DNA of 64,000 bases. It comes from an uncultured bacterium. Its GTDB lineage: Bacteria > Verrucomicrobiota > Kiritimatiellia > PWTM01. The position numbers and the translations under genes are program-made. The stretch is from NCBI GenBank assembly GCA_938010045.1, contig CALLFZ010000020.1:38754-102753 (forward strand), in the 5' to 3' direction. Within the stretch, counting starts at the first letter, position 1. Each line of letters opens with the position of its first letter. Below the pieces are notes generated by a model. That model saw only the letters and a program-made list of their open reading frames with translations. It was not told the origin of the DNA and ran no database searches. Positions 1,610 through 58,937 of this stretch are shown piece after piece.

Positions 1610-2341
1610 ATGGGTTCCCGCCCGTTGTCCCCGCTGCCGGATCCCGACGGCGTCCTCTTGGTGGACAAGCCGTCCGGCTGGACATCCCACGACGTGGTCG
1701 CGGCCGTCCGCGGTCGGTTCCGGCTGCGCAAGGTCGGCCATGGCGGCACGCTCGACCCCATGGCCACCGGCCTGCTCGTGGTGCTGATCGGCCGGGCCAC
1801 CCGTCTGGCCGACCGGTTCATGAACTCCGATAAGGCGTATGTGGGGGTTATGCGGCTCGGCATTGAGACGGACACCGAGGATGCCGACGGACGCGTGGTC
1901 GCGGAGCGCGACATCTCCGGTGTGACCGAGACGGCGCTGCGCGAGGCGCTCGCCCGCCGGACCGGCGACGTTTGGCAGGTTCCGCCCATGATCTCCGCGA
2001 TCAAGCGCGGCGGTCAGCCGCTCTACAAACTGGCCCGGCGCGGCCAGGTCGTGGAACGCGAGCCTCGCCTGATCCACATCTATGAGTTTTCCCTGCTCGA
2101 GTTCGCGCCGCCCCGCGCGAAGTTCCAGCTGCGCTGCACGAAGGGCACCTACGTGCGGACGCTCTGCGCGGACGTTGGGCGGGACCTGGGCTGCGGCGCC
2201 TTTCTCGAGGAACTGACCCGCACCCATTCGGGTGATCTTGCGCTCGAGGACGCTGCGCCGCTGAAGGAGATTCTCGACGGCGACCGCGCCGCGCTCGAGG
2301 CGCGCCTGCGGAGGATGGAAACCTTCGCTCCCTTGCCGTGA
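1610..2341 (+). CDS. truB: tRNA pseudouridine(55) synthase
   Basis: LLVDKPSGWTSHDVV...VGHGGTLDPMATGLLVV is the TruB catalytic motif. The start is 1 nt after the rbfA stop. Confidence 0.9.
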   Translation: MGSRPLSPLPDPDGVLLVDKPSGWTSHDVVAAVRGRFRLRKVGHGGTLDPMATGLLVVLIGRATRLADRFMNSDKAYVGVMRLGIETDTEDADGRVVAERDISGVTETALREALARRTGDVWQVPPMISAIKRGGQPLYKLARRGQVVEREPRLIHIYEFSLLEFAPPRAKFQLRCTKGTYVRTLCADVGRDLGCGAFLEELTRTHSGDLALEDAAPLKEILDGDRAALEARLRRMETFAPLP

Positions 2342-3354
2342 TGCGCGTGGCATGGGAGATCCGAACCGTCTCACCCGGGCCGCGCCCCGTGGCGCTGGCC
2401 ATCGGCGTGTTCGACGGTGTGCACATCGGACACCGCGCCGTGCTCGGCGCCGCCCGCGATCGCGCCCGTGCGGCCGGCGGCGAGGCGTGGGTGCTCACCT
2501 TCGAGCCCCACCCGCTCGAGGTGCTTCGCCCGCCGGAGGCTCCGCCCGCCATCCTTTCTCTTGAAGGCAAATTGCGCCGCTTCGCCGATCTCGGGCTCGA
2601 CGGATGCGTGGTGCAGCCGTTCACGCCGGACTTCGCGGCACTCGACCCGGCCGCCTTCGTCCGGCGGATCTTGGATTCGTTCGGACGGCTCTGCGCGATC
2701 GCGGTGGGTGAATCGTGGCGGTTCGGCCAGGCCGCCGCCGGCGACGTCGCGACGTTGCGCCAACTCGTCCGGACGGCCGGCACGGACGTCATCGCGGTGC
2801 CGCCAGTGCGCGTCGAGGGCCGAGTCGTGTCCAGCACAATGATCCGACACGCCATCCAGAGCGGCGACCTCGCGACGGCGGCCCGCTGGCTCGGCGAATG
2901 GTTTTCGTTCGACGGCGTGGTCGTGGCGGGTCGCGCCGTCGGCCGCCGCATCGGCATCCCCACCGCGAACCTGGAACCCCCGAGGCGGCGCGTGCGCCCG
3001 CCCGACGGCGTGTACGCCGCCTGGGTCCACGCCCGCGGCGCGCTCCATCCGGCGGCCGGCTACATCGGCACTCGCCCAACCTTCGCAGATAGCAACGAGA
3101 CGGTCATCGAACTGCACCTGCTCGACAGCGACCTCTCGCTCTACGGCGAACGCATCGAAGTGGACTGGGTCGCCCGCATACGTGGCGACCAGACATTTCC
3201 GGACGCCCAAGCGCTGCGGCGTCAGATCGACGACGACATCCGACGGATTCGCACAGTGCTCGGCGAAACCACGCCGCCGGCGCCGCGCGGCCCGACGCCC
3301 GGCGGCGTTGACACCGGACCGACCGCTTCGTACACTGACCGGCCTGTTGCGTAG
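2338..3354 (+). CDS. ribF: Bifunctional riboflavin kinase / FMN adenylyltransferase
   Basis: ALAIGVFDGVHIGHRAVL is the FAD-synthetase nucleotidyltransferase motif, followed by a riboflavin kinase C-terminal domain. A GTG start overlaps the truB stop (GTGA). Confidence 0.87.
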   Translation: MMRVAWEIRTVSPGPRPVALAIGVFDGVHIGHRAVLGAARDRARAAGGEAWVLTFEPHPLEVLRPPEAPPAILSLEGKLRRFADLGLDGCVVQPFTPDFAALDPAAFVRRILDSFGRLCAIAVGESWRFGQAAAGDVATLRQLVRTAGTDVIAVPPVRVEGRVVSSTMIRHAIQSGDLATAARWLGEWFSFDGVVVAGRAVGRRIGIPTANLEPPRRRVRPPDGVYAAWVHARGALHPAAGYIGTRPTFADSNETVIELHLLDSDLSLYGERIEVDWVARIRGDQTFPDAQALRRQIDDDIRRIRTVLGETTPPAPRGPTPGGVDTGPTASYTDRPVA

Positions 3355-3388
3355 CTCTGCGCGCAGACACCCGAGGATCCGAATTCGG

Positions 3389-3709
3389 ATGAAACCGTAC
3401 GCAGTGATTGAAACAGGCGGAAAACAGTATCTCGTTCGGCCGGACGATCGTCTGACGATCGAGCGGATCGCCGCGGAGCCCGGCCAGACCGTGGCGCTGG
3501 CTCCGGTGCTGGCAATCTCCGACGGTTCGACGTTGAAGGTGGGCACCCCCGACCTGCCCGATGCGACCGTTTCGGCGCAGGTCCTCGGGCACAGCCGGGC
3601 CCGCAAGGTGATTTCGTATCGGAAAAAGCGCCGGAAGGGGTATCACCGCAAAGTCGGCCACCGGCAATCGGTCACGTCGGTCAGGATCGTCGGCATCCCG
3701 ACCCCCTGA
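3389..3709 (+). CDS. rplU: 50S ribosomal protein L21
   Basis: MKPYAVIETGGKQYLV... is the L21 signature. The longer track ORF (3182..3709) is an upstream in-frame extension; the ATG at 3389 gives a 106-aa product. Confidence 0.9.
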   Translation: MKPYAVIETGGKQYLVRPDDRLTIERIAAEPGQTVALAPVLAISDGSTLKVGTPDLPDATVSAQVLGHSRARKVISYRKKRRKGYHRKVGHRQSVTSVRIVGIPTP

Positions 3710-3727: not shown

Positions 3728-3991
3728 ATGGCGCATAAAAAAGGTCAGGGCACCAGTCGAAACGGACGCGATAGCCGCGGTCAGCGCCTCGGCGTCAAGT
3801 GCTTCGCCGGCCAGACGGTGCGCGCGGGGCACATCTTGGTGCGCCAGCGCGGCACCCGGCTGCACCCGGGGCGCAACGTCGGTATGGGGCGCGACTTCAC
3901 GCTGTTCGCGCTGGCCGACGGCGTGGTCGCCATGGACGCTCGTTCACGCCGCGTCCACGTCATTTCGGCCGCGCCGACGAGCTCCAACTGA
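3728..3991 (+). CDS. rpmA: 50S ribosomal protein L27
   Basis: [23 protein letters not shown] is the L27 N-terminus. The rplU-rpmA-obg order is conserved. Confidence 0.92.
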
Positions 3992-4033
3992 GCCGGGCTC
4001 GGTCGGGCCTTCGCGCGGCCCGGAGATCAGGCC

Positions 4034-5080
4034 GTGAAGGCGCCCACCTTTATTGACCGTGTCCAGGTCCACGTCCGCGCTGGACGCGGAGGCGACGGCG
4101 TTGCCACGTTTCGCCGCGAAAAACGCGTGCCCTGGGGCGGCCCAGACGGCGGCGACGGCGGCCGGGGCGGCGACGTGGTGCTGCGGGGCGACGCCTCGCT
4201 TGATTCTCTTCTCCACCTCTACTATCAGCCGCACCACCGTGCGGAAAATGGCATGCCCGGCCGCCGCAAGCAGCAAACCGGCCGCAGCGGGGCCGACTGG
4301 ATCATCCGTGTGCCCTGCGGCACCGAAGTCCGCAACGCGGCGGACGGCGCCTGGATCGGCGAGATCATGCACGACGGCGAACACCTCGTGGTGGCGCGAG
4401 GCGGCGCAGGTGGGCTCGGCAACCTCCATTTCGTCACGTCCACCCACCAGGCGCCGCGCGAATGCACGCCCGGCCAGCCCGGCGAGGAACGCAAGCTGCT
4501 GCTCGAGCTGAAGCTCATCTCCGATGTCGGCCTCGTCGGATTCCCAAATGCAGGCAAGTCCACCTTGCTCGGCGCGATCAGCCGAGCCCGGCCCCGCGTC
4601 GCGCCCTATCCGTTCACCACCCTCCATCCCACGGTCGGAGTCGTGCCGCTCGACGACGAGCGGACGCTGCGCGTCGCCGACATCCCCGGTCTCATTGCCG
4701 GCGCGCACCGAGGCGTCGGTCTCGGCCACGATTTTCTGCGGCATATCGAACGCACCCGCTTCCTCGTGCTGCTGATCGACATGGCCGGCACCGAGGGCCG
4801 GCATCCAGCGGACGACTTTTTTTGCCTCCGCCGAGAGCTCGAGATGTACGGGCGCGGACTGGACGAGCGGCCCTATCTGACCGTCGCCAACAAAATGGAC
4901 ATGCCCGATGCGGCGAAGCATCTCGAAGAGTTCGTGGCTCGCACCAGCGTCACTCCGTTAACGATTTCCGCGCAGGCGCGCACAGGCCTCGACACATTGA
5001 TCGCCACTCTCGCGGAGCGCATCGCCGAACTCGAGCGTGCCCCCCCATCGGCCGCCCCGCCTGCTCCGCCGCCGCCATGA
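4034..5080 (+). CDS. obg: GTPase Obg/CgtA
   Basis: An Obg fold N-terminal glycine-rich domain (GRGGDGVATFRREK...GGPDGGDGGRGGDV) is followed by a GTPase domain (GFPNAGKSTLL). Confidence 0.92.
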   Translation: MKAPTFIDRVQVHVRAGRGGDGVATFRREKRVPWGGPDGGDGGRGGDVVLRGDASLDSLLHLYYQPHHRAENGMPGRRKQQTGRSGADWIIRVPCGTEVRNAADGAWIGEIMHDGEHLVVARGGAGGLGNLHFVTSTHQAPRECTPGQPGEERKLLLELKLISDVGLVGFPNAGKSTLLGAISRARPRVAPYPFTTLHPTVGVVPLDDERTLRVADIPGLIAGAHRGVGLGHDFLRHIERTRFLVLLIDMAGTEGRHPADDFFCLRRELEMYGRGLDERPYLTVANKMDMPDAAKHLEEFVARTSVTPLTISAQARTGLDTLIATLAERIAELERAPPSAAPPAPPPP

Positions 5081-15916: not shown

Positions 15917-16320
15917 GAGCCTGACATCATACGGCCCGAAATACCGATGCGCAAGCGACCACCCACGATTCCCGTGCCCCCACGTCCGACGCCGCCGAAC
16001 CCTGCAGACGGACGGCCGAACGGACGGCAGGTTTCGAAACGGTGTTTCCAAGGATTGGACGATGATACCGAGCAGCCATCCAAACCTTGGACGCGACTCA
16101 ATCGCGGGCGGCCCCACCGTAGGGGGAACCGGCCGCCCACCTCGGCGCCGTGCCGCGGCCAACTCACAACACCTCGGCCATCCGTGGCGCCGACGTCGCT
16201 GGGCACTTCCGCTCCGACGCCCGCGATCTGCAAGGCGGTATTCTGCGGCGTACATGGCTGGCCGGATCGTTTCCGAGCTCCGGCGCCGGAGCGGTGCCTG
16301 CGAGCCGGCGGGGTTGTCCG

Positions 16321-16354
16321 GTGCCTGTCGCCGCTCTTCGGTGGGGACAGGCAC
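16321..16354. repeat. Short hairpin copy of the GGGGACAGGCAC / GTGCCTGTC repeat family (9-bp arms, 16-nt loop)
   Basis: The sequence is GTGCCTGTCgccgctcttcggtgGGGACAGGCACAAG. The same 15-mer GGGGACAGGCACAAG occurs at 51206. Confidence 0.45.
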
Positions 16355-16517
16355 AAGTACAAAATCGGCGCGGGTCCAGCTGGGCCATCGGCGCGCCGGG
16401 CACGGTACAGCGCCGAGTGCTGATCCGCCCCGCCCGATGCGCTGACACGAAACGGTACTCCGCGAAGCCCAGAGAGTCCCACCGAGCGGCCGAAGCGCAG
16501 ATGGTCGAGCGCCGGGA

Positions 16518-16594
16518 TGGTGCGCCTGCCGCGGATCGAACGCGGAACCTTCAGCTCCGGAGGCTGACGCTCTGTCCAATTGAGCTACAGGCGC
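16518..16594 (-). tRNA. tRNA-Arg (anticodon CCG)
   Basis: The reverse complement folds as a cloverleaf: acceptor GCGCCUG/CAGGCGC, D-arm GCUC/GAGC, anticodon stem UCAGC/GCUGA with loop CUCCGGA, T-arm CCGCG-UUCGAUC-CGCGG, and an encoded CCA. Confidence 0.85.
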
Positions 16595-27484: not shown

Positions 27485-28780
27485 TCATGTCCGTTTCCCC
27501 TTCTCCTCCACCACCAGCCCCGGCAATTGATACTTGCCCGGTACGGCCACCGGCGGCACTGGCATCGGGTCGCTCATCTTGAGGTCCGACCGCGGCCGCA
27601 GATCCAGCTCACAACGCTGCAGGAACCACTCCCGCTTCATCTGCTGACGAGTGTAGGCGGACTCGCGCGCCATGATCGCGCACATCGTGCTCTCTGTGAC
27701 CTGCCGCGCCTCGTTCAGGTACGCGCCGCCCCGGATACTCTCGATGAGATGCCGGTGCTCCTCCACGTACGGGTTCGGCGTCGGTCCCTCGTACCGCCAT
27801 TTCACCTCCCCCTCAATCACACCGGCGCAGTTGCTCCACCCCTTCGTGCCCACCACCCGCTCGCTCACGTTGCCCGCCGAACCCTCGATCTGCCGGCACA
27901 GGCTGATCGTGCGCACGTCGCCCGGATAGAAGAATTCCGTGCCGAAGTGATCGTAGATGTGGCCATACTCCGGCGCGGTCCGGAACTGCCGGCCGCCGAG
28001 CGAATGGACCTGATCCGGCAGAGCGCCCATCGCCCAGTTGATCACATCAATGTTGTGCACGTGCTGCTCGACGATATGATCGCCCGATAGCCACACGAAA
28101 TAGAGCCAGTTGCGAAGCTGCCACTCGATGTCGCTCTGGTTCGGCTCACGCTTCTTCACCCAAAGACCACCCTGATTCCAGTAGCACTGCGCCGAGACGA
28201 TTTGGCCGATCGCGCCATCGCGAATGCGCTTCATCGTCTCCATGTACTTCGGATCATGCCGCCGCTGCGTGCCGGCCGCGACGCAGAGCTTCTTCGCGAC
28301 TGACTTCTCCGCCGCCTCGAGCATCTGCCGCACGCCCGCCGCGCACACCGCGACCGGCTTCTCGGTGAAAATGTGCTTGCCCGCCTCCACCGCGGCCGAA
28401 AAATGCAGCGGCCGGAACCCCGGCGGCGTCGCAAGGATCACCAGGTCCACCTCGCTGAGCGCGAGCACTTCGCGGTAGGCCTCGAGCCCGACAAAGCAGC
28501 GGTTGTCGGGGACCTTGAACTTTGCTTTCGCGCGCTCCACGCGATCCGCGAACGCATCGGCCAGCGCCACGATCTTCACGCCCTGAGCGGCCTCTAGACA
28601 ATTGTCCGCCGCGCCCATACCGCGGCCGCCGCATCCAATCACGCCAACCCCGATGGTGTCGGTCGCCGCCGTGTAGGCGACCCTGGGAGCCGCGCCGGCC
28701 AGCGCAAATCCGCCCGCCGCCATCGCCGTCCGTCCCAGAAACCGCCGCCGATTCATCCGTGCGATGTCCGCCATAATCAT
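27485..28780 (-). CDS. Gfo/Idh/MocA family oxidoreductase with Tat signal (paralog of 26130..27440)
   Basis: NRRRFLGRTAMAAGGFALAGAA is a Tat motif and GVIGCGGRGMGAA a Rossmann motif. AAGGAG lies 3 nt upstream of the ATG at 28780. Confidence 0.75.
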   Translation of the reverse strand: MIMADIARMNRRRFLGRTAMAAGGFALAGAAPRVAYTAATDTIGVGVIGCGGRGMGAADNCLEAAQGVKIVALADAFADRVERAKAKFKVPDNRCFVGLEAYREVLALSEVDLVILATPPGFRPLHFSAAVEAGKHIFTEKPVAVCAAGVRQMLEAAEKSVAKKLCVAAGTQRRHDPKYMETMKRIRDGAIGQIVSAQCYWNQGGLWVKKREPNQSDIEWQLRNWLYFVWLSGDHIVEQHVHNIDVINWAMGALPDQVHSLGGRQFRTAPEYGHIYDHFGTEFFYPGDVRTISLCRQIEGSAGNVSERVVGTKGWSNCAGVIEGEVKWRYEGPTPNPYVEEHRHLIESIRGGAYLNEARQVTESTMCAIMARESAYTRQQMKREWFLQRCELDLRPRSDLKMSDPMPVPPVAVPGKYQLPGLVVEEKGKRT

Positions 28781-29960
28781 CTCCTTGTCGCGCGGGGCAC
28801 ACGCAGAACGCGCCGCCGTCGCATCAAATCCATACTCTATCCCCGGACAGCGCGTCCGCACAAGCCGCACCCCGCCCCTCGCGCCGTTTGCGCTGTGGGG
28901 CATCCGCTGGCTCAAGAGGCGTCGGCGAAGCGAATATCGTTCCCGCCAACACCCCGGCGCCACTCACCCGCGCTTCTCGCCCTTCCTCGAAAAACACGAA
29001 TGCTTCGACCATCCGCCCCCCTGGGGACCGGCACTTGGAACGCCCCTCGAGACCGGCACCTCGCCGGCCCTACGGCGGCGCGGGGGACAGGTACCTCTGA
29101 CGGGCACCTCTGACGGCTGAGCCCGAAACAAGCACCTCGCGGGCGGCCGCTGGGAAGAGGCACCTTGCGGGCGGATCGGGACAGACTCATGTACGGTCGG
29201 CCGGGCCGCTCGGCGTCAGTCGCCTCGCGTCAGCTACATGCAGTCGTCTTAGGGACCGTCATAGGCGCCATAGGGACAGGCACCGTTCTGGGAGCGGAAC
29301 CGGGATGGGCACTGAGAGCTCACGGGGCACAGGGTGGGGACAGGCACAGCACCGGCCGCACGAGTTCCAACGACACTTCTAACGCCGAGAGTGGGGCTGT
29401 CGTGTGCCTGTCCGCAGTCCGCTGCGGCCGTCCGCGATTGGGGACAGGCACATGCGCCGACGACGCAAAAATCTCGCTGTCCCTATGCTCTGACTTCGTA
29501 TCGGGTGCCTGTCCCCATCGGGAGTCGCGATCGATGTCGAGCGCCGCCGCGCGGAAGCCCGCGAGTGGCGAGGCCGCCGTCTGCGGCGAGCAGGGCGGGC
29601 CCGACGGTTTCCCGCCGCTGTTCGATAGAGGACCGGCAGACGAGGCATACATGCACTTCTATCCGCTTCTACCGGCATGCAGACCCCTCGTCGCATCTCT
29701 TGACACAATCCACAACGCGATCCCACCTACCCCTCCGACCCGCGAGCCCTCTGCGCAGGATCGCATCTTGGAACGGCGAAGCGGGGCGCTCCAGCACCGC
29801 GCCCGATGAGGACGCGCGGGTTTCTTCCGCGGGTCGCGGCGCGCCGCCTTCGGCGGTGCGCAAACGCGGACGGTGCCGGCTAGCCGCTTGCAGGAAGCGG
29901 CGGGGCGTCGTAGTGTCTGGCTGCCACGCCGATCAGCCACCGGCGGGCGGGAGATTCGTC
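28781..29960. repeat. Non-coding repeat island A: mosaic of GGGGACAGGCAC / GTGCCTGTCCCC modules plus degenerate GCACCTC tandem repeats
   Basis: This is 1.2 kb with no credible ORF. The core 12-mer or close variants occur at 29023, 29083, 29271, 29336, 29404 (inverted), 29440 and 29505 (inverted). Long stretches align to island B. Confidence 0.65.
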
Positions 29961-51077: not shown

Positions 51078-51798
51078 GATAGGGCTGCGCGGCTGCTCCT
51101 GTCAAATGATCGAATCTCGAGAGGAACACGGTCACCTCTCTGGGCGCAGGGGGCGAATCGAACCGACGGGGGTAGCCGGGACGTTGGCTCTGGCTAGGCG
51201 CCCTTGGGGACAGGCACAAGCGCAGACGACGCAACCATCTCGATCTCAATCTGCCGTGACTTTTTGTCGGGTGCCTGTCCCCATTTGAGTCCCCATTTGA
51301 ATCCTCGATCATTGTCGAGCGCCGCCGCGCCGATGCCCGCTCACAACGAGGCCGTCGATCGCGGCGGTCGTGGCACAGGGCTGGCCTGATGGTTTCCTCT
51401 CCGCTGTAGCTCCGGCGCTCCGCCGCCGGAACAAGGCTTGTGGGGGCCGGTGGTAGCAGGCACCTCGGACGGCGGCTGGGACAGGCCCCTCTGGAGCGGC
51501 TGCTGGGGAGAAACACGTACCTGCTCGGCCGAGCACTCCAGCGATCATCGCCCCGCCCTAGCCGCCAGAGATCGTCATAGGGACAGGCAGCGCTCTGGGC
51601 GCAGGCTGGTGCAGAGAACCGATCGGGTTCGCTAGGTGCCTGTCCCCAGTCCGGTCCCCAGCCCGCTGCCCCGTCCGCCATTGGGGACGCCATTGGGGAC
51701 AGGCACACGTCCCGCGGAATCCTCCTACCCGCATCCTGACCCCACGTTTTCCCCCTTCGAAACAAAATCCGCCGCGCAATCGGCTTTCCGGGGCCCTC

Positions 51799-51827
51799 TT
51801 GACGCAGAACCTTGTCGCTTGTATGTT
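51799..51827 (+). promoter_or_regulatory. Candidate sigma70-type promoter (TTGACG-17-TATGTT)
   Basis: The -35 and -10 hexamers have 17-nt spacing and lie immediately upstream of a strong hairpin and U-tract. The -35 region is conserved in island A (CTCTTGACACA at 29697). Confidence 0.3.
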
Positions 51828-51833
51828 GATCAT

Positions 51834-51897
51834 GGGCAGTGTGCGTTTTCCCTGGGTTCCCCACCCAACCTCCTTGGCGCACGCTGCCCTTTTTTTG
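51834..51897 (+). terminator. Intrinsic-terminator-like hairpin (12-bp stem with one G-U, 32-nt loop) plus a 7-T tract; with the promoter, a candidate small RNA of about 60 nt
   Basis: GGGCAGTGTGCG...CGCACGCTGCCC is followed by TTTTTTT. The U-tract exists only in the + orientation, which is antisense to cysK. Confidence 0.4.
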
Positions 51898-57918: not shown

Positions 57919-58115
57919 TTTTTCGATTCGGTTAGTTCTGTTTTTCAGATCTCTAAACTTTACCCATTGACGTTCAAACACTACGAATCAAGTTCTCTAA
58001 ACAAGTTGTCGCAAACACATTCGAGGATCAAACGAAAAACGCGACGAATCCGATATTGGGCCGGCGGAGCTTTTTCCGCGGACCGCGCGCCAGACACGCC
58101 CGCGAACTCAATCGG

Positions 58116-58937
58116 TCAGTCGGAACGAAGATCGAGCTCCGCCGCCACGAGGCACATGGCGGCCATGGCCGCCGTCTCGACCCTCAAAATCTGCCGGCTG
58201 AGCTGAATCTTCGCGAAACCCGCCGCGCACAGCCGCCGGACCTCAGCTTCGCTCCACCCTCCTTCCGGTCCCACCGCCACGCGAACGCGCCGGCCGGAAT
58301 CCGGCAACAGCAGCCGTTCCCGCATGACCGTCCAACCTTCCGCGCCTGAGCCAGTATCGCAAATAAGCGAGACATCCGCATCGCAGCTTGCGGCAACAGC
58401 CGCATCCATATCGCCGAACCAGAGAACCTGGGGCAGACGATTGCGCCCACATTGTTTCGCGGCCGCAATCGCGGTGGCGCGCCATCGCTCAGCCCAGCGC
58501 CCACAAGCCGCCGCTGACGGACGACCGATCGTTCGCTCGGCGGCGAACAATATGACGCGATGAAAGCCGAGCTCAACGGCAGCGCGTACGATCTCGTCCT
58601 TCTTCTCCCCCTTCGGCGCGCCCTGCAGAAGCGTGCCGTGCCATCGGGACGGCGCTTCGCAGATCGGAATCTCCAATTCGAGAGACACCGTCCGGCCGTG
58701 CACCGAGCTGACCCACCCTTGCGCACTCCGCCCTTCGCCGTCGAATGCCTCCACCGGCGCACCGGCTCCCAGCCGCAGCACCACCGCGATGTGGTGCGAT
58801 TCCTCCGGGCTTAGAGTCGCCTCCCCCCCATCGGGCGGAAGATTCTCTACGAAGCAGCGAGGGGGACGATGAGCGGACCGTTCGTCGGGCTGACCGCCCC
58901 GGATGGCGTCATGCCTCGAGCTTCGCCTTCCGGTCAT
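58116..58937 (-). CDS. rsmE: 16S rRNA (uracil1498-N3)-methyltransferase
   Basis: The product has an RsmE fold (PRCFVE..., then the SPOUT C-terminus [11 protein letters not shown]). The only in-frame start, the ATG at 58937, overlaps the dnaJ 3' end by 29 nt. Confidence 0.7.

Follow-up and report, generated by a model that had tools for sequence, protein, structure and literature searches.

A BIME-like cluster of probable TIRYT-type REP-like repeats in a divergent promoter region of a Kiritimatiellia genome

INTRODUCTION

In the 64-kb stretch of Kiritimatiellia DNA analyzed here (the window), two divergent genes are separated by an unusually long gap. A sequence-only reading of this locus had described the gap as gene-free, 1.2 kb in length, and built from a repeated 12-mer and its accompanying sub-modules, and had likened it to either a REP/BIME-type mosaic or a cluster of structured RNAs, without recognizing it as a known family. 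The question that the locus raises is what kind of DNA this is, and how it came to lie between these two genes, which border the gap as follows:

27485-28780, minus strand: GFO/IDH/MocA oxidoreductase gene, at whose start the gap begins
29961 (ATG), plus strand: hypothetical gene, the right border of the gap

A possible point of reference is provided by the TIRYT genes, which are flanked by repeats that share the consensus GGGGWSAS, some of which constitute dispersed families found as singles, dimers, or clusters (Di Nocera et al., 2013; PMC3733652). The same consensus for TIRYT-associated repeats is given by Quentin (2018; PMC6006769), where the genes, described as low-copy per genome, are said to be largely equivalent to TnpA-Y1 subclass 2.1; they are likewise reported to correspond largely to RAYT Group 1 (Bertels et al., 2017). 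Published opinion is split on whether enzymes of this clade spread repeats: Quentin et al. saw no REP-like sequences beside genes of subclass 2.1, and according to Bertels and Rainey REPINs are confined to RAYTs of Groups 2 and 3.

RESULTS

The gap is non-coding and largely lineage-specific

None of the five ORFs inside the gap (island A) has a Pfam match. In an alignment with the orthologous region of a 95%-identical relative (L196; 1176 nt, collinear, and about 92-95% identical), island A differs by indels of 1, 2, 2, 2, 3, 9, and 1 nt, such that any reading frame would be shifted. Island A is without coding signal. The description of a gene-free gap therefore holds, but the idea that the whole 1.2 kb is built of repeats does not, as recognizable repeats are confined to ~29018-29621, and the outermost parts, ~150 nt at the left end and ~75 nt at the right, share homology with the short intergenic region found in other relatives.

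Those relatives (L198 and L199, two Kiritimatiellia genomes with conserved synteny) have 214 and 238 nt at the orthologous position, versus 1180 nt here, and no cores of the repeat described below in that region. Their residual homology to the window is limited to 28762-28932 and 29885-29916, which delimits the following stretch:

28930-29885, no strand: lineage-specific DNA, ~950 nt, with approximate boundaries

Within this extra DNA, the leftmost ~130 nt and the rightmost ~260 nt contain no recognizable repeat. A third relative does carry cores, but in a different intergenic region.

A 13-nt core is confined to three islands

The 12-mer noticed previously can be extended to a 13-mer, TGGGGACAGGCAC, of which there are eight exact copies in the window, compared to 0.00 expected from 100 dinucleotide-preserving shuffles. 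All exact copies lie in three non-coding islands, at ~16.2-16.4 kb (island B), 29.0-29.6 kb (island A), and 51.2-51.7 kb (island C). When up to two mismatches to the 12-mer are allowed, there are 21 matches versus 9.0 ± 3.3 expected, and none of the shuffles reached 21. Each of the seven sites originally listed for island A does indeed carry the 12-mer, or a variant with no more than one mismatch (29023, 29083, 29272, 29336, 29404 on the minus strand, 29440, and 29505 on the minus strand), and the conserved sub-modules said to lie beside these units were likewise located at their sites. The genes neighboring the 13-mer in the window are unrelated to one another, as for example in the aconitase/tRNA-Arg and cysK regions. 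The repeats of island A comprise:

29018-29113, plus strand: head-to-tail run of degenerate cores (repeat families D1, D2, D11, and D14), with core copies TGGGGACCGGCAC at 29022, TCGAGACCGGCAC at 29047, and GGGGGACAGGTAC at 29082
29086-29111: 13-nt tandem GACAGGTACCTCT/GACGGGCACCTCT, within the degenerate run
29127-29174: direct repeat AACAAGCACCTCGCGGGCGG / AAGAGGCACCTTGCGGGCGG, in module X
29129-29295, plus strand: module X of the mosaic (repeat families D5 and D7), homologous to island C 51457-51602
29259-29283: sub-module GTCATAGG...TAGGGACAGGCAC of the earlier description, in module X
29330-29421, no strand: hairpin 1 (module Y; inverted repeat I2), homologous by blastn to island C 51580-51688; arms are an exact plus-strand core at 29335-29347 and a minus-strand core with one mismatch at 29404-29416
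29399-29456, no strand: alternative hairpin (inverted repeat I6), pairing the minus-strand core at 29404-29416 with the next plus-strand core at 29439-29451
29434-29522, no strand: REPIN-like doublet (module Z; inverted repeat I13, 13/13 complementary); arms are an exact plus-strand core at 29439-29451 and an exact minus-strand core at 29505-29517, with 53 nt between them
29518-29621, plus strand: tail module (GATCGATGTCGAGCGCCGCCGCGC ... GGTTTCC), following the doublet and common to island C 51284-51407 and island B 16209-16274
29532-29553: sub-module TCGATGTCGAGCGCCGCCGCGC

The cores at 29335, 29404, 29439, and 29505 are oriented + - + -, which makes a BIME-like alternating chain. Folded as DNA, hairpin 1 has a free energy of -21.7 kcal/mol (z = -2.3), the alternative hairpin -20.9 kcal/mol (z = -4.9, with none of 200 shuffles equally stable), and module Z -21.0 kcal/mol (z = -4.0). 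Compared with L196, the degenerate run at 29018-29113 is the least conserved stretch of island A, whereas the three exact cores of the island, including both arms of module Z, are unchanged while neighboring degenerate copies have diverged. A CRISPR array was rejected, given the irregular spacings (249, 64, and 104 nt) and mixed orientations of the units.

The three islands share one permuted mosaic

The two other islands are organized as follows:

16209-16359, no strand: island B, consisting of the tail module (16209-16274) and then a short hairpin
16321-16333, minus strand, and 16342-16354, plus strand: arms of the island B hairpin, the former a core with two mismatches, the latter an exact core
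51199-51711, no strand: island C, one full mosaic unit of ~490 nt, in the order doublet (51205-51283), tail (51284-51407), X (51457-51602), Y (51580-51688), and next hairpin (51636-51706)
51309-51330: TCATTGTCGAGCGCCGCCGCGC, the island C counterpart of TCGATGTCGAGCGCCGCCGCGC

Modules X, Y, Z, and the tail are common to the islands in permuted order. Module X aligns with its island C homologue at 64% identity over 171 columns (blastn, E=4e-6), a match that was reproduced in a second comparison, and module Z is 72% identical to 51199-51407 (blastn, E=2e-28), with the same architecture as island C 51205-51283. Island A as a whole is collinear across the junction of two tandem copies of the island C unit (E=8e-32), so that both islands, A and C, represent a single ~490-nt mosaic unit in circularly permuted form. 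The ~490-nt mosaic of repeat units and accompanying modules is present in islands A, B, and C in different phases. One further, weak match of island A (58111-58177) falls within coding sequence and was set aside, as it looks like a GC-rich chance match.

The hairpins of all three islands far exceed shuffled sequence in stability (z = -2.3 to -5.7). The extreme is the island B hairpin (-14.6 kcal/mol, z = -5.7), which lies in an island 160 nt from tRNA-Arg(CCG); the island C folds have z = -4.2 and -3.3, the former for the doublet region 51200-51288 with its 53-nt spacer.

The 13-mer is widespread as inverted doublets

Inverted doublets of TGGGGACAGGCAC with species-specific flanks were found at more than 105 loci in 11 other phyla. 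These doublets occur in Actinomycetota, Acidobacteriota, Pseudomonadota, Bacillota, Verrucomicrobiota, and Planctomycetota, and also in Nitrospirota, Armatimonadota, Hydrogenedentota, a 'Deltaproteobacteria' MAG, and Saccharibacteria. The gene-less copies among these loci are doublets and arrays, and the stems of doublets outside the window show compensatory changes. The repeat unit thus consists of an invariant head, TGGGGACAGGCAC, and species-specific flanks, and two inverted units ~35-65 nt apart constitute a REPIN-like hairpin. By contrast, a scan of 2.9 million viral contigs gave no match to the doublet, and the module TCGGGTGCCTGTCCCCAT..TGTCGAGCGCCGCC, which is specific to the window, had no match in the metagenome scan. 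Since blastn of the islands against the other loci returned matches of core length only, modules X, Y, Z, and the tail are lineage-specific.

A position profile around 275 cores contains no GTAG, and its flanks are A/T-rich and species-specific. We had considered a universal stem-loop around each core, but a strong local stem is present in only 12 of 31 lineages and is, therefore, not the defining feature. In many other genomes the doublet is flanked by A-tracts and T-tracts, and in this respect looks like a bidirectional intrinsic terminator. In Collinsella, the inverted repeat reaches 11 nt past the core.

The core brackets RAYT-like Y1 genes in other genomes

A search of the window by tblastn, and of its six-frame translation with HMMs, returned no Y1/RAYT gene, in agreement with the earlier statement that no RAYT or IS200-like transposase lies there. 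Such an absence is to be expected, because the literature describes the gene as low-copy per genome. In other genomes, the 13-mer, or a core with one or two mismatches, flanks class-2 Y1 (HUH) transposase genes. These include genes from Saccharibacteria, from Kaiserbacteria and Parcubacteria (L107-L112), from Clostridia (L021), and at locus L114, together with a Pirellula gene (L019) that has core arrays on both sides. At locus L097, the arms of an 86-nt hairpin are the same as the two ends that bracket a Y1 gene.

Three partner proteins score above the Pfam cut-off for Y1_Tnp. Their best NCBIfam match is the REP-associated tyrosine transposase (NF047646), at 76.6, 59.5, and 44.9 bits against a cut-off of 80, whilst matches to IS200 models are weak (19-20 bits in NCBIfam, cut-off 55). 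The L097 protein matches TnpA-REP (PDB 4ER8; E=2e-5). The proteins are 222-402 aa long, with the HUH motif in the form NH[WIV]H, a Y...N[PA] motif, and C-terminal extensions. Among metagenomic homologues for which both flanks are available, 55 of 63 have inverted repeats of at least 9 nt around the gene, most of them no more than ~100 nt from its ends and a few as far away as ~285 nt, and GGGGWSAS is present in 17 of these 55.

The partner gene was detected only via pairs of cores 0.3-3 kb apart. When 2563 ORFs from the 105 loci were clustered all-against-all for a shared neighbor, the only groups recovered were Collinsella genes in synteny and broad families (histidine kinases, ABC transporters, SDRs, and the like). 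As no specific family emerged, the partner gene is not usually adjacent to the cores.

DISCUSSION

Origin of island A

We conclude that island A is probably a BIME-like cluster of TIRYT-type REP-like repeats, belonging to a family that flanks RAYT-like class-2 Y1/HUH genes. Of the two likenesses suggested at the outset, the REP/BIME mosaic is borne out by the alternating hairpin units, by the permutation of modules among the three islands, by the absence of the island from the orthologous site in relatives, and by the RAYT-like genes that the core flanks elsewhere. Contrary to the earlier description, the repeat can be related to a known family, as its core matches the GGGGWSAS motif published for repeats associated with TIRYT genes. 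A literature search with the literal 12-mer, its variants, and its RNA spelling yielded nothing but unrelated papers on eukaryotic primers and miRNAs.

Taking IS608 TnpA and E. coli TnpA-REP as models, we infer that the repeats are mobilized by a Y1 transposase, encoded elsewhere in the genome, that would recognize the folded single strand. Such an enzyme would nick the strand via a 5′-phosphotyrosine intermediate, with re-ligation at a new single-stranded site. Repeated insertion beside existing copies, along with unequal recombination or slippage, could then have built and permuted the cluster. In this lineage, some 950 extra bases would thereby have been added to the divergent promoter region, and would remain partly as intact doublets and partly in a decayed state. 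The cognate enzyme may have been lost from this genome.

That last possibility leads to the most serious alternative, which we nevertheless consider unlikely: that island A belongs to the same repeat family but is a dead relic whose cognate Y1 has been lost, and is now inert, decaying DNA that persists only through drift or through some incidental effect as promoter or terminator. About half of its copies are degenerate, there is no Y1 gene within the window, and the island is collinear in the 95%-identical relative, with no whole units gained or lost. Nonetheless, eight cores in the window are still perfect 13-mers, the three exact cores of island A have stayed the same while their degenerate neighbors diverged, and for a gene reported to be low-copy, absence from 64 kb says little. 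Decidedly improbable is a cluster of structured non-coding RNAs, either sRNAs or cis-regulatory leaders, that is expressed from the divergent promoter region and has hairpins acting as RNA. The hairpins are stable, the doublet has terminator-like A- and T-tracts in many other genomes, and REPs, once transcribed, are known to act as RNA elements (PMC3733652). Yet Rfam searches of the window, of the island (E-value up to 10), and of six other loci returned only tRNAs, the sole match in the window being tRNA-Arg; with no Rfam family at gathering or E-value thresholds, the earlier suggestion of a structured-RNA cluster was not upheld. Moreover, cores occur in both orientations and beside unrelated genes, relatives have none of the segment at the orthologous site, and the one terminator-like and one promoter-like site of island A do not coincide with its hairpins. 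A role as RNA would, at best, be a secondary function and not the origin of the island.

Two further explanations take the 13-mer to be a binding site or a terminus. An array of operators, bound by a transcription factor governing the divergent oxidoreductase and lipoprotein-like genes, would suit the position of the island in a divergent promoter region, and a repeated asymmetric 13-mer could be a protein-binding site. We regard this as very improbable, given that the 13-mer also lies beside unrelated genes in the window (aconitase/tRNA-Arg and cysK) and in 11 other phyla, that relatives with the same gene pair lack it, and that it brackets transposase genes. The least probable of the four is a classical MITE of a DDE-transposase insertion sequence, for which the 13-mer (5′-TG...CA-3′) would serve as terminal inverted repeat. 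Although the doublet begins with TG and ends with CA, in elements of 61-91 nt, copies in unique flanks (for example, the alphaproteobacterial loci L008, L010, L016, L054, L056, and L062) have no target-site duplication. In addition, the inverted repeat in Collinsella runs past the core by 11 nt, the 105 loci have no DDE transposase family in common, and Y1/HUH is the only kind of gene that the core was found to bracket.

Several other identities were rejected on the basis of sequence alone. For a sigma-54 promoter, the spacing is off by one and the flanks are not conserved; CsrA-binding loops do not account for a motif that is also found in Actinomycetota, where CsrA is not expected. Shufflon sfx, attC, and parS/dif-type sites, and complementarity to rRNA, were dismissed in the same way.

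Implications

If island A is a cluster of TIRYT-type repeats, it is no longer a candidate for a novel RNA or regulatory island, but selfish or domesticated repeat DNA that has enlarged a promoter region from 0.2 to 1.2 kb. The published 8-nt GGGGWSAS signature corresponds, in one widespread variant, to a 13-nt invariant head that is commonly arranged as hairpin doublets. Carriers of the 13-nt head include Actinomycetota, Bacillota, Pseudomonadota, Acidobacteriota, PVC phyla, members of the candidate phyla radiation (Saccharibacteria and Kaiserbacteria), and others. The 13-mer offers a simple search key for annotating repeats that break MAG assemblies and mislead ORF callers. To our knowledge, no biochemistry has been published for TIRYT enzymes, and the 13-mer unit provides a defined substrate for a first such test.

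More tentatively, the TGGGGACAGGCAC doublets may represent one pan-bacterial REPIN-like family. Its enzymes would be of the TIRYT (Group 1 RAYT-like) type and its range would cover at least 12 phyla, down to the reduced genomes of Saccharibacteria, with one head retained even among partner proteins that are only ~23-26% identical; we would put the case for and against this at close to balance. Were it so, it would contradict the views that RAYTs outside Groups 2 and 3 have no REPINs and that REP-like partners are missing from subclass 2.1. It would also imply either an unusually rigid protein-DNA recognition code, or a very wide horizontal spread of one enzyme-repeat pair. The family offers a test case for long-term associations of the REPIN-RAYT type outside RAYT Groups 2 and 3.

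Comparison with known systems

The repeats have features in common with several elements that are recognized as folded single strands. With integron attC sites they share an imperfect-hairpin form of 60-140 nt in which the ends are conserved and the center varies, but the R″/R′ consensus (RYYYAAC/GTTRRRY), cassette ORFs, and integrase are absent here, and the associated enzyme is HUH, whereas that of attC is a tyrosine recombinase. IS200/IS605 elements and their gene-less derivatives (PATEs) likewise have a Y1 HUH transposase, sub-terminal ssDNA hairpins, and no target-site duplication. In the present case, however, there are only weak matches to IS200 models and no tnpB gene, and the ends are true inverted repeats, unlike the asymmetric left and right ends of IS200/IS605.

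The resemblance to the canonical REP/BIME/REPIN-RAYT systems of E. coli and Pseudomonas (RAYT Groups 2 and 3) is closer in form. Both comprise short extragenic hairpin repeats and inverted doublets, alternating-orientation mosaics with accessory motifs as in BIMEs, and an associated HUH/Y1 enzyme related to TnpA-REP (PDB 4ER8); as in REPINs, two inverted units separated by a short spacer (53 nt at both 29434-29522 and 51200-51288) form one long hairpin. The differences are that the 5′ GT[AG]G head of canonical REPs is absent, that the partner proteins fall below the NCBIfam cut-off for REP-associated tyrosine transposases (44.9-76.6 versus 80 bits), and that the head is common to many phyla rather than species-specific.

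The TIR repeats associated with TIRYT genes (the TIRtron family) agree with our observations in sequence as well as in arrangement. The head GGGGACAG (followed by GCAC) conforms to the published consensus GGGGWSAS. In other genomes, RAYT-like Y1 genes lie between inverted copies, typically located ~40-100 nt upstream and 0-100 nt downstream, and dispersed gene-less copies occur as singles, dimers, and clusters, with a wide and patchy taxonomic spread. What sets the present family apart is a longer, 13-nt head that is invariant across at least 12 phyla, the arrangement of most dispersed copies as REPIN-like hairpin doublets, and, in the Kiritimatiellia window, the embedding of the repeats in a periodic mosaic of ~490 nt.

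Repeat islands in the window

The gap at 28781-29960, which lies between a divergent gene pair, had been described from sequence alone as an island built from a palindromic 12-mer, GGGGACAGGCAC. All of the copies listed in that reading are present at their places, and the conserved word is longer, a 13-mer, TGGGGACAGGCAC (the core), which has eight exact copies in 64 kb versus 0.00 expected from 100 dinucleotide-preserving shuffles. Nor is the 12-mer at chance frequency within the window, where 21 matches with ≤2 mismatches were found versus 9.0 ± 3.3 expected. Across the whole window, exact cores are confined to three non-coding islands (A, B, and C). The relevant features are as follows.

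27485-28780 (-), GFO/IDH/MocA oxidoreductase gene, its start forming the left border of the gap
29961 (+), ATG of a hypothetical gene, right border of the gap
16.2-16.4 kb, island B, adjoining tRNA-Arg
29.0-29.6 kb, island A, exact cores
51.2-51.7 kb, island C, exact cores
29330-29421, island A hairpin, -21.7 kcal/mol, z = -2.3
29399-29456, island A hairpin, -20.9 kcal/mol, z = -4.9
29434-29522, island A hairpin, -21.0 kcal/mol, z = -4.0
16316-16359, island B hairpin, ~160 nt from tRNA-Arg(CCG)

The intact cores of island A, at 29335, 29404, 29439, and 29505, alternate in orientation (+ - + -), and every adjacent pair is foldable in computed folds. Upstream of them, at 29018-29295, half-cores and degenerate copies are arranged head-to-tail. 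Islands A and C have three blocks in common, in changed order. The ~490-nt unit of island C was doubled in tandem and island A was aligned to it: 29337-29621 formed a single collinear block over the junction of the tandem units (E = 8e-32), and 29129-29295 matched the stretch of the unit that comes before. The mosaic has a shorter form in island B, comprising tail and hairpin. Judged by these shared, reordered blocks, collinear over the junction, the three islands are different phases of one periodic mosaic. With its alternating cores and permuted shared modules, the architecture is of the BIME type, as the sequence-only reading had suspected. Between the start of the aconitase gene (~16000) and tRNA-Arg(CCG) at 16518-16594 (-), a long run of non-coding DNA holds the tail module and one doublet (two inverted cores forming a hairpin).

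Comparison with relatives

The source organism is a member of the Kiritimatiellia; its cysK shares 96% identity with the cysK of a Kiritimatiellae MAG. Relatives keep the same gene order around island A (two GFO oxidoreductases, gap, hypothetical gene, GHMP kinase, SSF transporter, AraC). Gap sizes differ sharply: 1176 nt in L196, a relative with a 95% identical orthologue, and only 214 nt and 238 nt, with no cores, in L198 and L199 (68% and 62% identity). Homology to the short version is left only at ~28762-28932 and 29885-29916, that is, at both edges, and the island A gap thus holds roughly 950 extra nt. Island A and its L196 counterpart are collinear and ~92-95% identical; the three exact cores are identical in L196, and the degenerate copies have diverged. 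The indels between them (1, 2, 2, 2, 3, 9, and 1 nt) are incompatible with a conserved reading frame, and none of the five ORFs within the gap has a Pfam match. A 119-aa ORF inside the island had been predicted by the gene caller used for the Logan contig (L196 3359-3718 (-); window 29320-29726 (-)); in the window, a 1-nt indel near 29610 puts the corresponding ORFs into different frames, and Pfam has no match to them. Such repeats give rise to spurious ORF calls.

The repeats of island C are missing near cysK in two relatives, one of which (L194) has cores in a different intergenic region. At the island A site, where L198 and L199 have short gaps with no cores, the repeat family is lineage-specific. 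Beside island C, at 51790-51896 (+), there is a promoter-like TTGACG-17-TATGTT, followed by a ~65-nt hairpin (GGGCAGTGTGCG...CGCACGCTGCCC) with CCACCCAACCTCCTTGG in its loop, and a T7 run. Although L193 and L194 lack the island C repeats at cysK, they keep this element beside it (86% at L193 5022-5098; 80% in L194). Rfam has no match to it; possible identities are a conserved small RNA and a shared bidirectional terminator.

Distribution in other bacteria

A scan for TGGGGACAGGCAC-N35-65-GTGCCTGTCCCCA, with each species represented by one genome, gave at least 105 doublet loci, in Actinomycetota (many Collinsella; Atopobiaceae, Anoxymicrobiaceae), Alpha- and Betaproteobacteria, one "Deltaproteobacteria" MAG, Acidobacteriota, Bacillota, Verrucomicrobiota, Planctomycetota, Nitrospirota, Armatimonadota, Hydrogenedentota, and Saccharibacteria; 2.9 million viral contigs gave no matches. 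Across the loci listed, the 13-mer is constant and the centre and flanks are species-specific, with compensatory stem changes within genomes (e.g., Lachnospiraceae copies). Doublets are intergenic, frequently directly after stop codons, also occur as tandem or nested arrays, and reach one copy per ~2 kb in some genomes. A short additional inverted repeat around the single core is strong in 12/31 lineages, and hence not universal. The literal core motif is absent from the searchable literature.

In one alphaproteobacterial MAG, six loci with unique flanks (L008, L010, L016, L054, L056, L062) carry 82-nt elements that share a 23-nt inverted terminus (core + CTGAACGGCG), with no target duplication seen. 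Their ~36-nt centres are unrelated subfamilies, some of them mutual reverse complements.

A Y1 transposase as partner gene in other genomes

No neighbour gene is common across phyla at the doublet loci. The partner gene was located via core pairs 0.3-3 kb apart. In L097 (Saccharibacteria), a + core and a - core exactly enclose a 222-aa ORF with the HUH motif MPNHWHLL; the arms adjoining it recur in a gene-less hairpin of 86 nt, 1.5 kb away. Pfam classes the protein as Y1_Tnp (1.7e-16); of the NCBIfam models, REP-associated tyrosine transposase (RAYT; 76.6 bits, below the cut-off of 80) matches it best, and it also matches E. coli TnpA-REP (PDB 4ER8; E = 2e-5). Homologous Y1 genes in Kaiserbacteria, Parcubacteria, and another contig have cGGGGACAGGCAC or GGGACAGTCAC on either side. 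A 26%-identical gene lies between exact cores in a Clostridia MAG (L021), and alternating exact-core arrays bracket a 400-aa gene in a Pirellula MAG (L019), both proteins being verified as Y1_Tnp. This head is found on both sides of class-2 Y1 transposase genes from several phyla. Among 80 metagenomic homologues fetched, 63 had both flanks available; inverted repeats ≥9 nt enclose the gene in 55 of the 63, usually ~40-100 nt upstream and 0-100 nt downstream (a few pairs to ~285 nt). Repeat heads differ with the protein (GGGGACAGGCAC, GGGGTCAGCCAC, GGTGTCAGGAACC, GGGGACGCAACCC, and others). The window itself has no Y1 gene, in agreement with the sequence-only reading.

Kaiserbacteria contigs L107-L109 hold two identical 225-aa Y1 genes (2001-2678 and 3787-4464) at a distance of 1.8 kb, both flanked by a cGGGGACAGGCAC pair of their own and separated by two small ORFs. 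A whole TIRtron seems to have been duplicated recently, which differs from the single-copy habit described for RAYTs. The core-bounded segment of L021 (1763-3490) contains, besides the Y1 gene (1874-2671 (-), with a helix-turn-helix-like C-terminal tail), a 216-aa ORF (2764-3411) that may be a cargo or accessory gene. The L019 arrays, at 2590-2722 and 4354-4608, give this PVC-group bacterium a REPtron-like arrangement.

Interpretation and relation to known repeat families

The repeat family is real, hairpin-forming, and arranged as a mosaic. The mechanism proposed is modelled on IS608 TnpA and TnpA-REP: the source genome would encode, outside the window, a Y1 enzyme that nicks and rejoins the folded single strand and thereby spreads the units, and clusters might grow by insertion next to existing copies and by unequal recombination. 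A version of the same explanation in which the units are dead relics is plausible, though less likely. A cluster of structured RNAs had also been proposed; no Rfam family matches the core repeats, and island A is judged not to be a new RNA or regulatory system.

TIRYTs, or TIRtrons, are RAYT-like genes that have inverted repeats of this type on their flanks; the repeats have the common motif GGGGWSAS, some of them are moderately abundant families of singles, dimers, and clusters, and a planctomycete rich in both genes and repeats is mentioned (Di Nocera et al., PMC3733652). The core starts with GGGGACAG, and therefore fits GGGGWSAS; the sequence-only reading had not recognised a known family. 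The motif is also found in 17 of the 55 metagenomic homologues with flanking inverted repeats. Island A cores carry it, and the same head brackets Y1 genes elsewhere; the repeats of the island belong to the TIRYT-associated family. Most TIRYTs fall into TnpA-Y1 subclass 2.1 (Bertels' Group 1), the RAYT group of widest distribution, beside whose genes no REP-like sequences were reported (Quentin et al., PMC6006769). Group 1 flanking 16-mers are only moderately frequent (Bertels et al.), and REPINs are stated to be limited to RAYT Groups 2 and 3 (Bertels and Rainey). The constancy of the 13-nt head in no fewer than 12 phyla, and how prevalent REPIN-like doublets are in this transposase clade, go somewhat beyond this literature and are of note to RAYT researchers. 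They leave the category of island A unchanged: it is an ordinary, though well-developed, case of REP/BIME-type extragenic repeat DNA.
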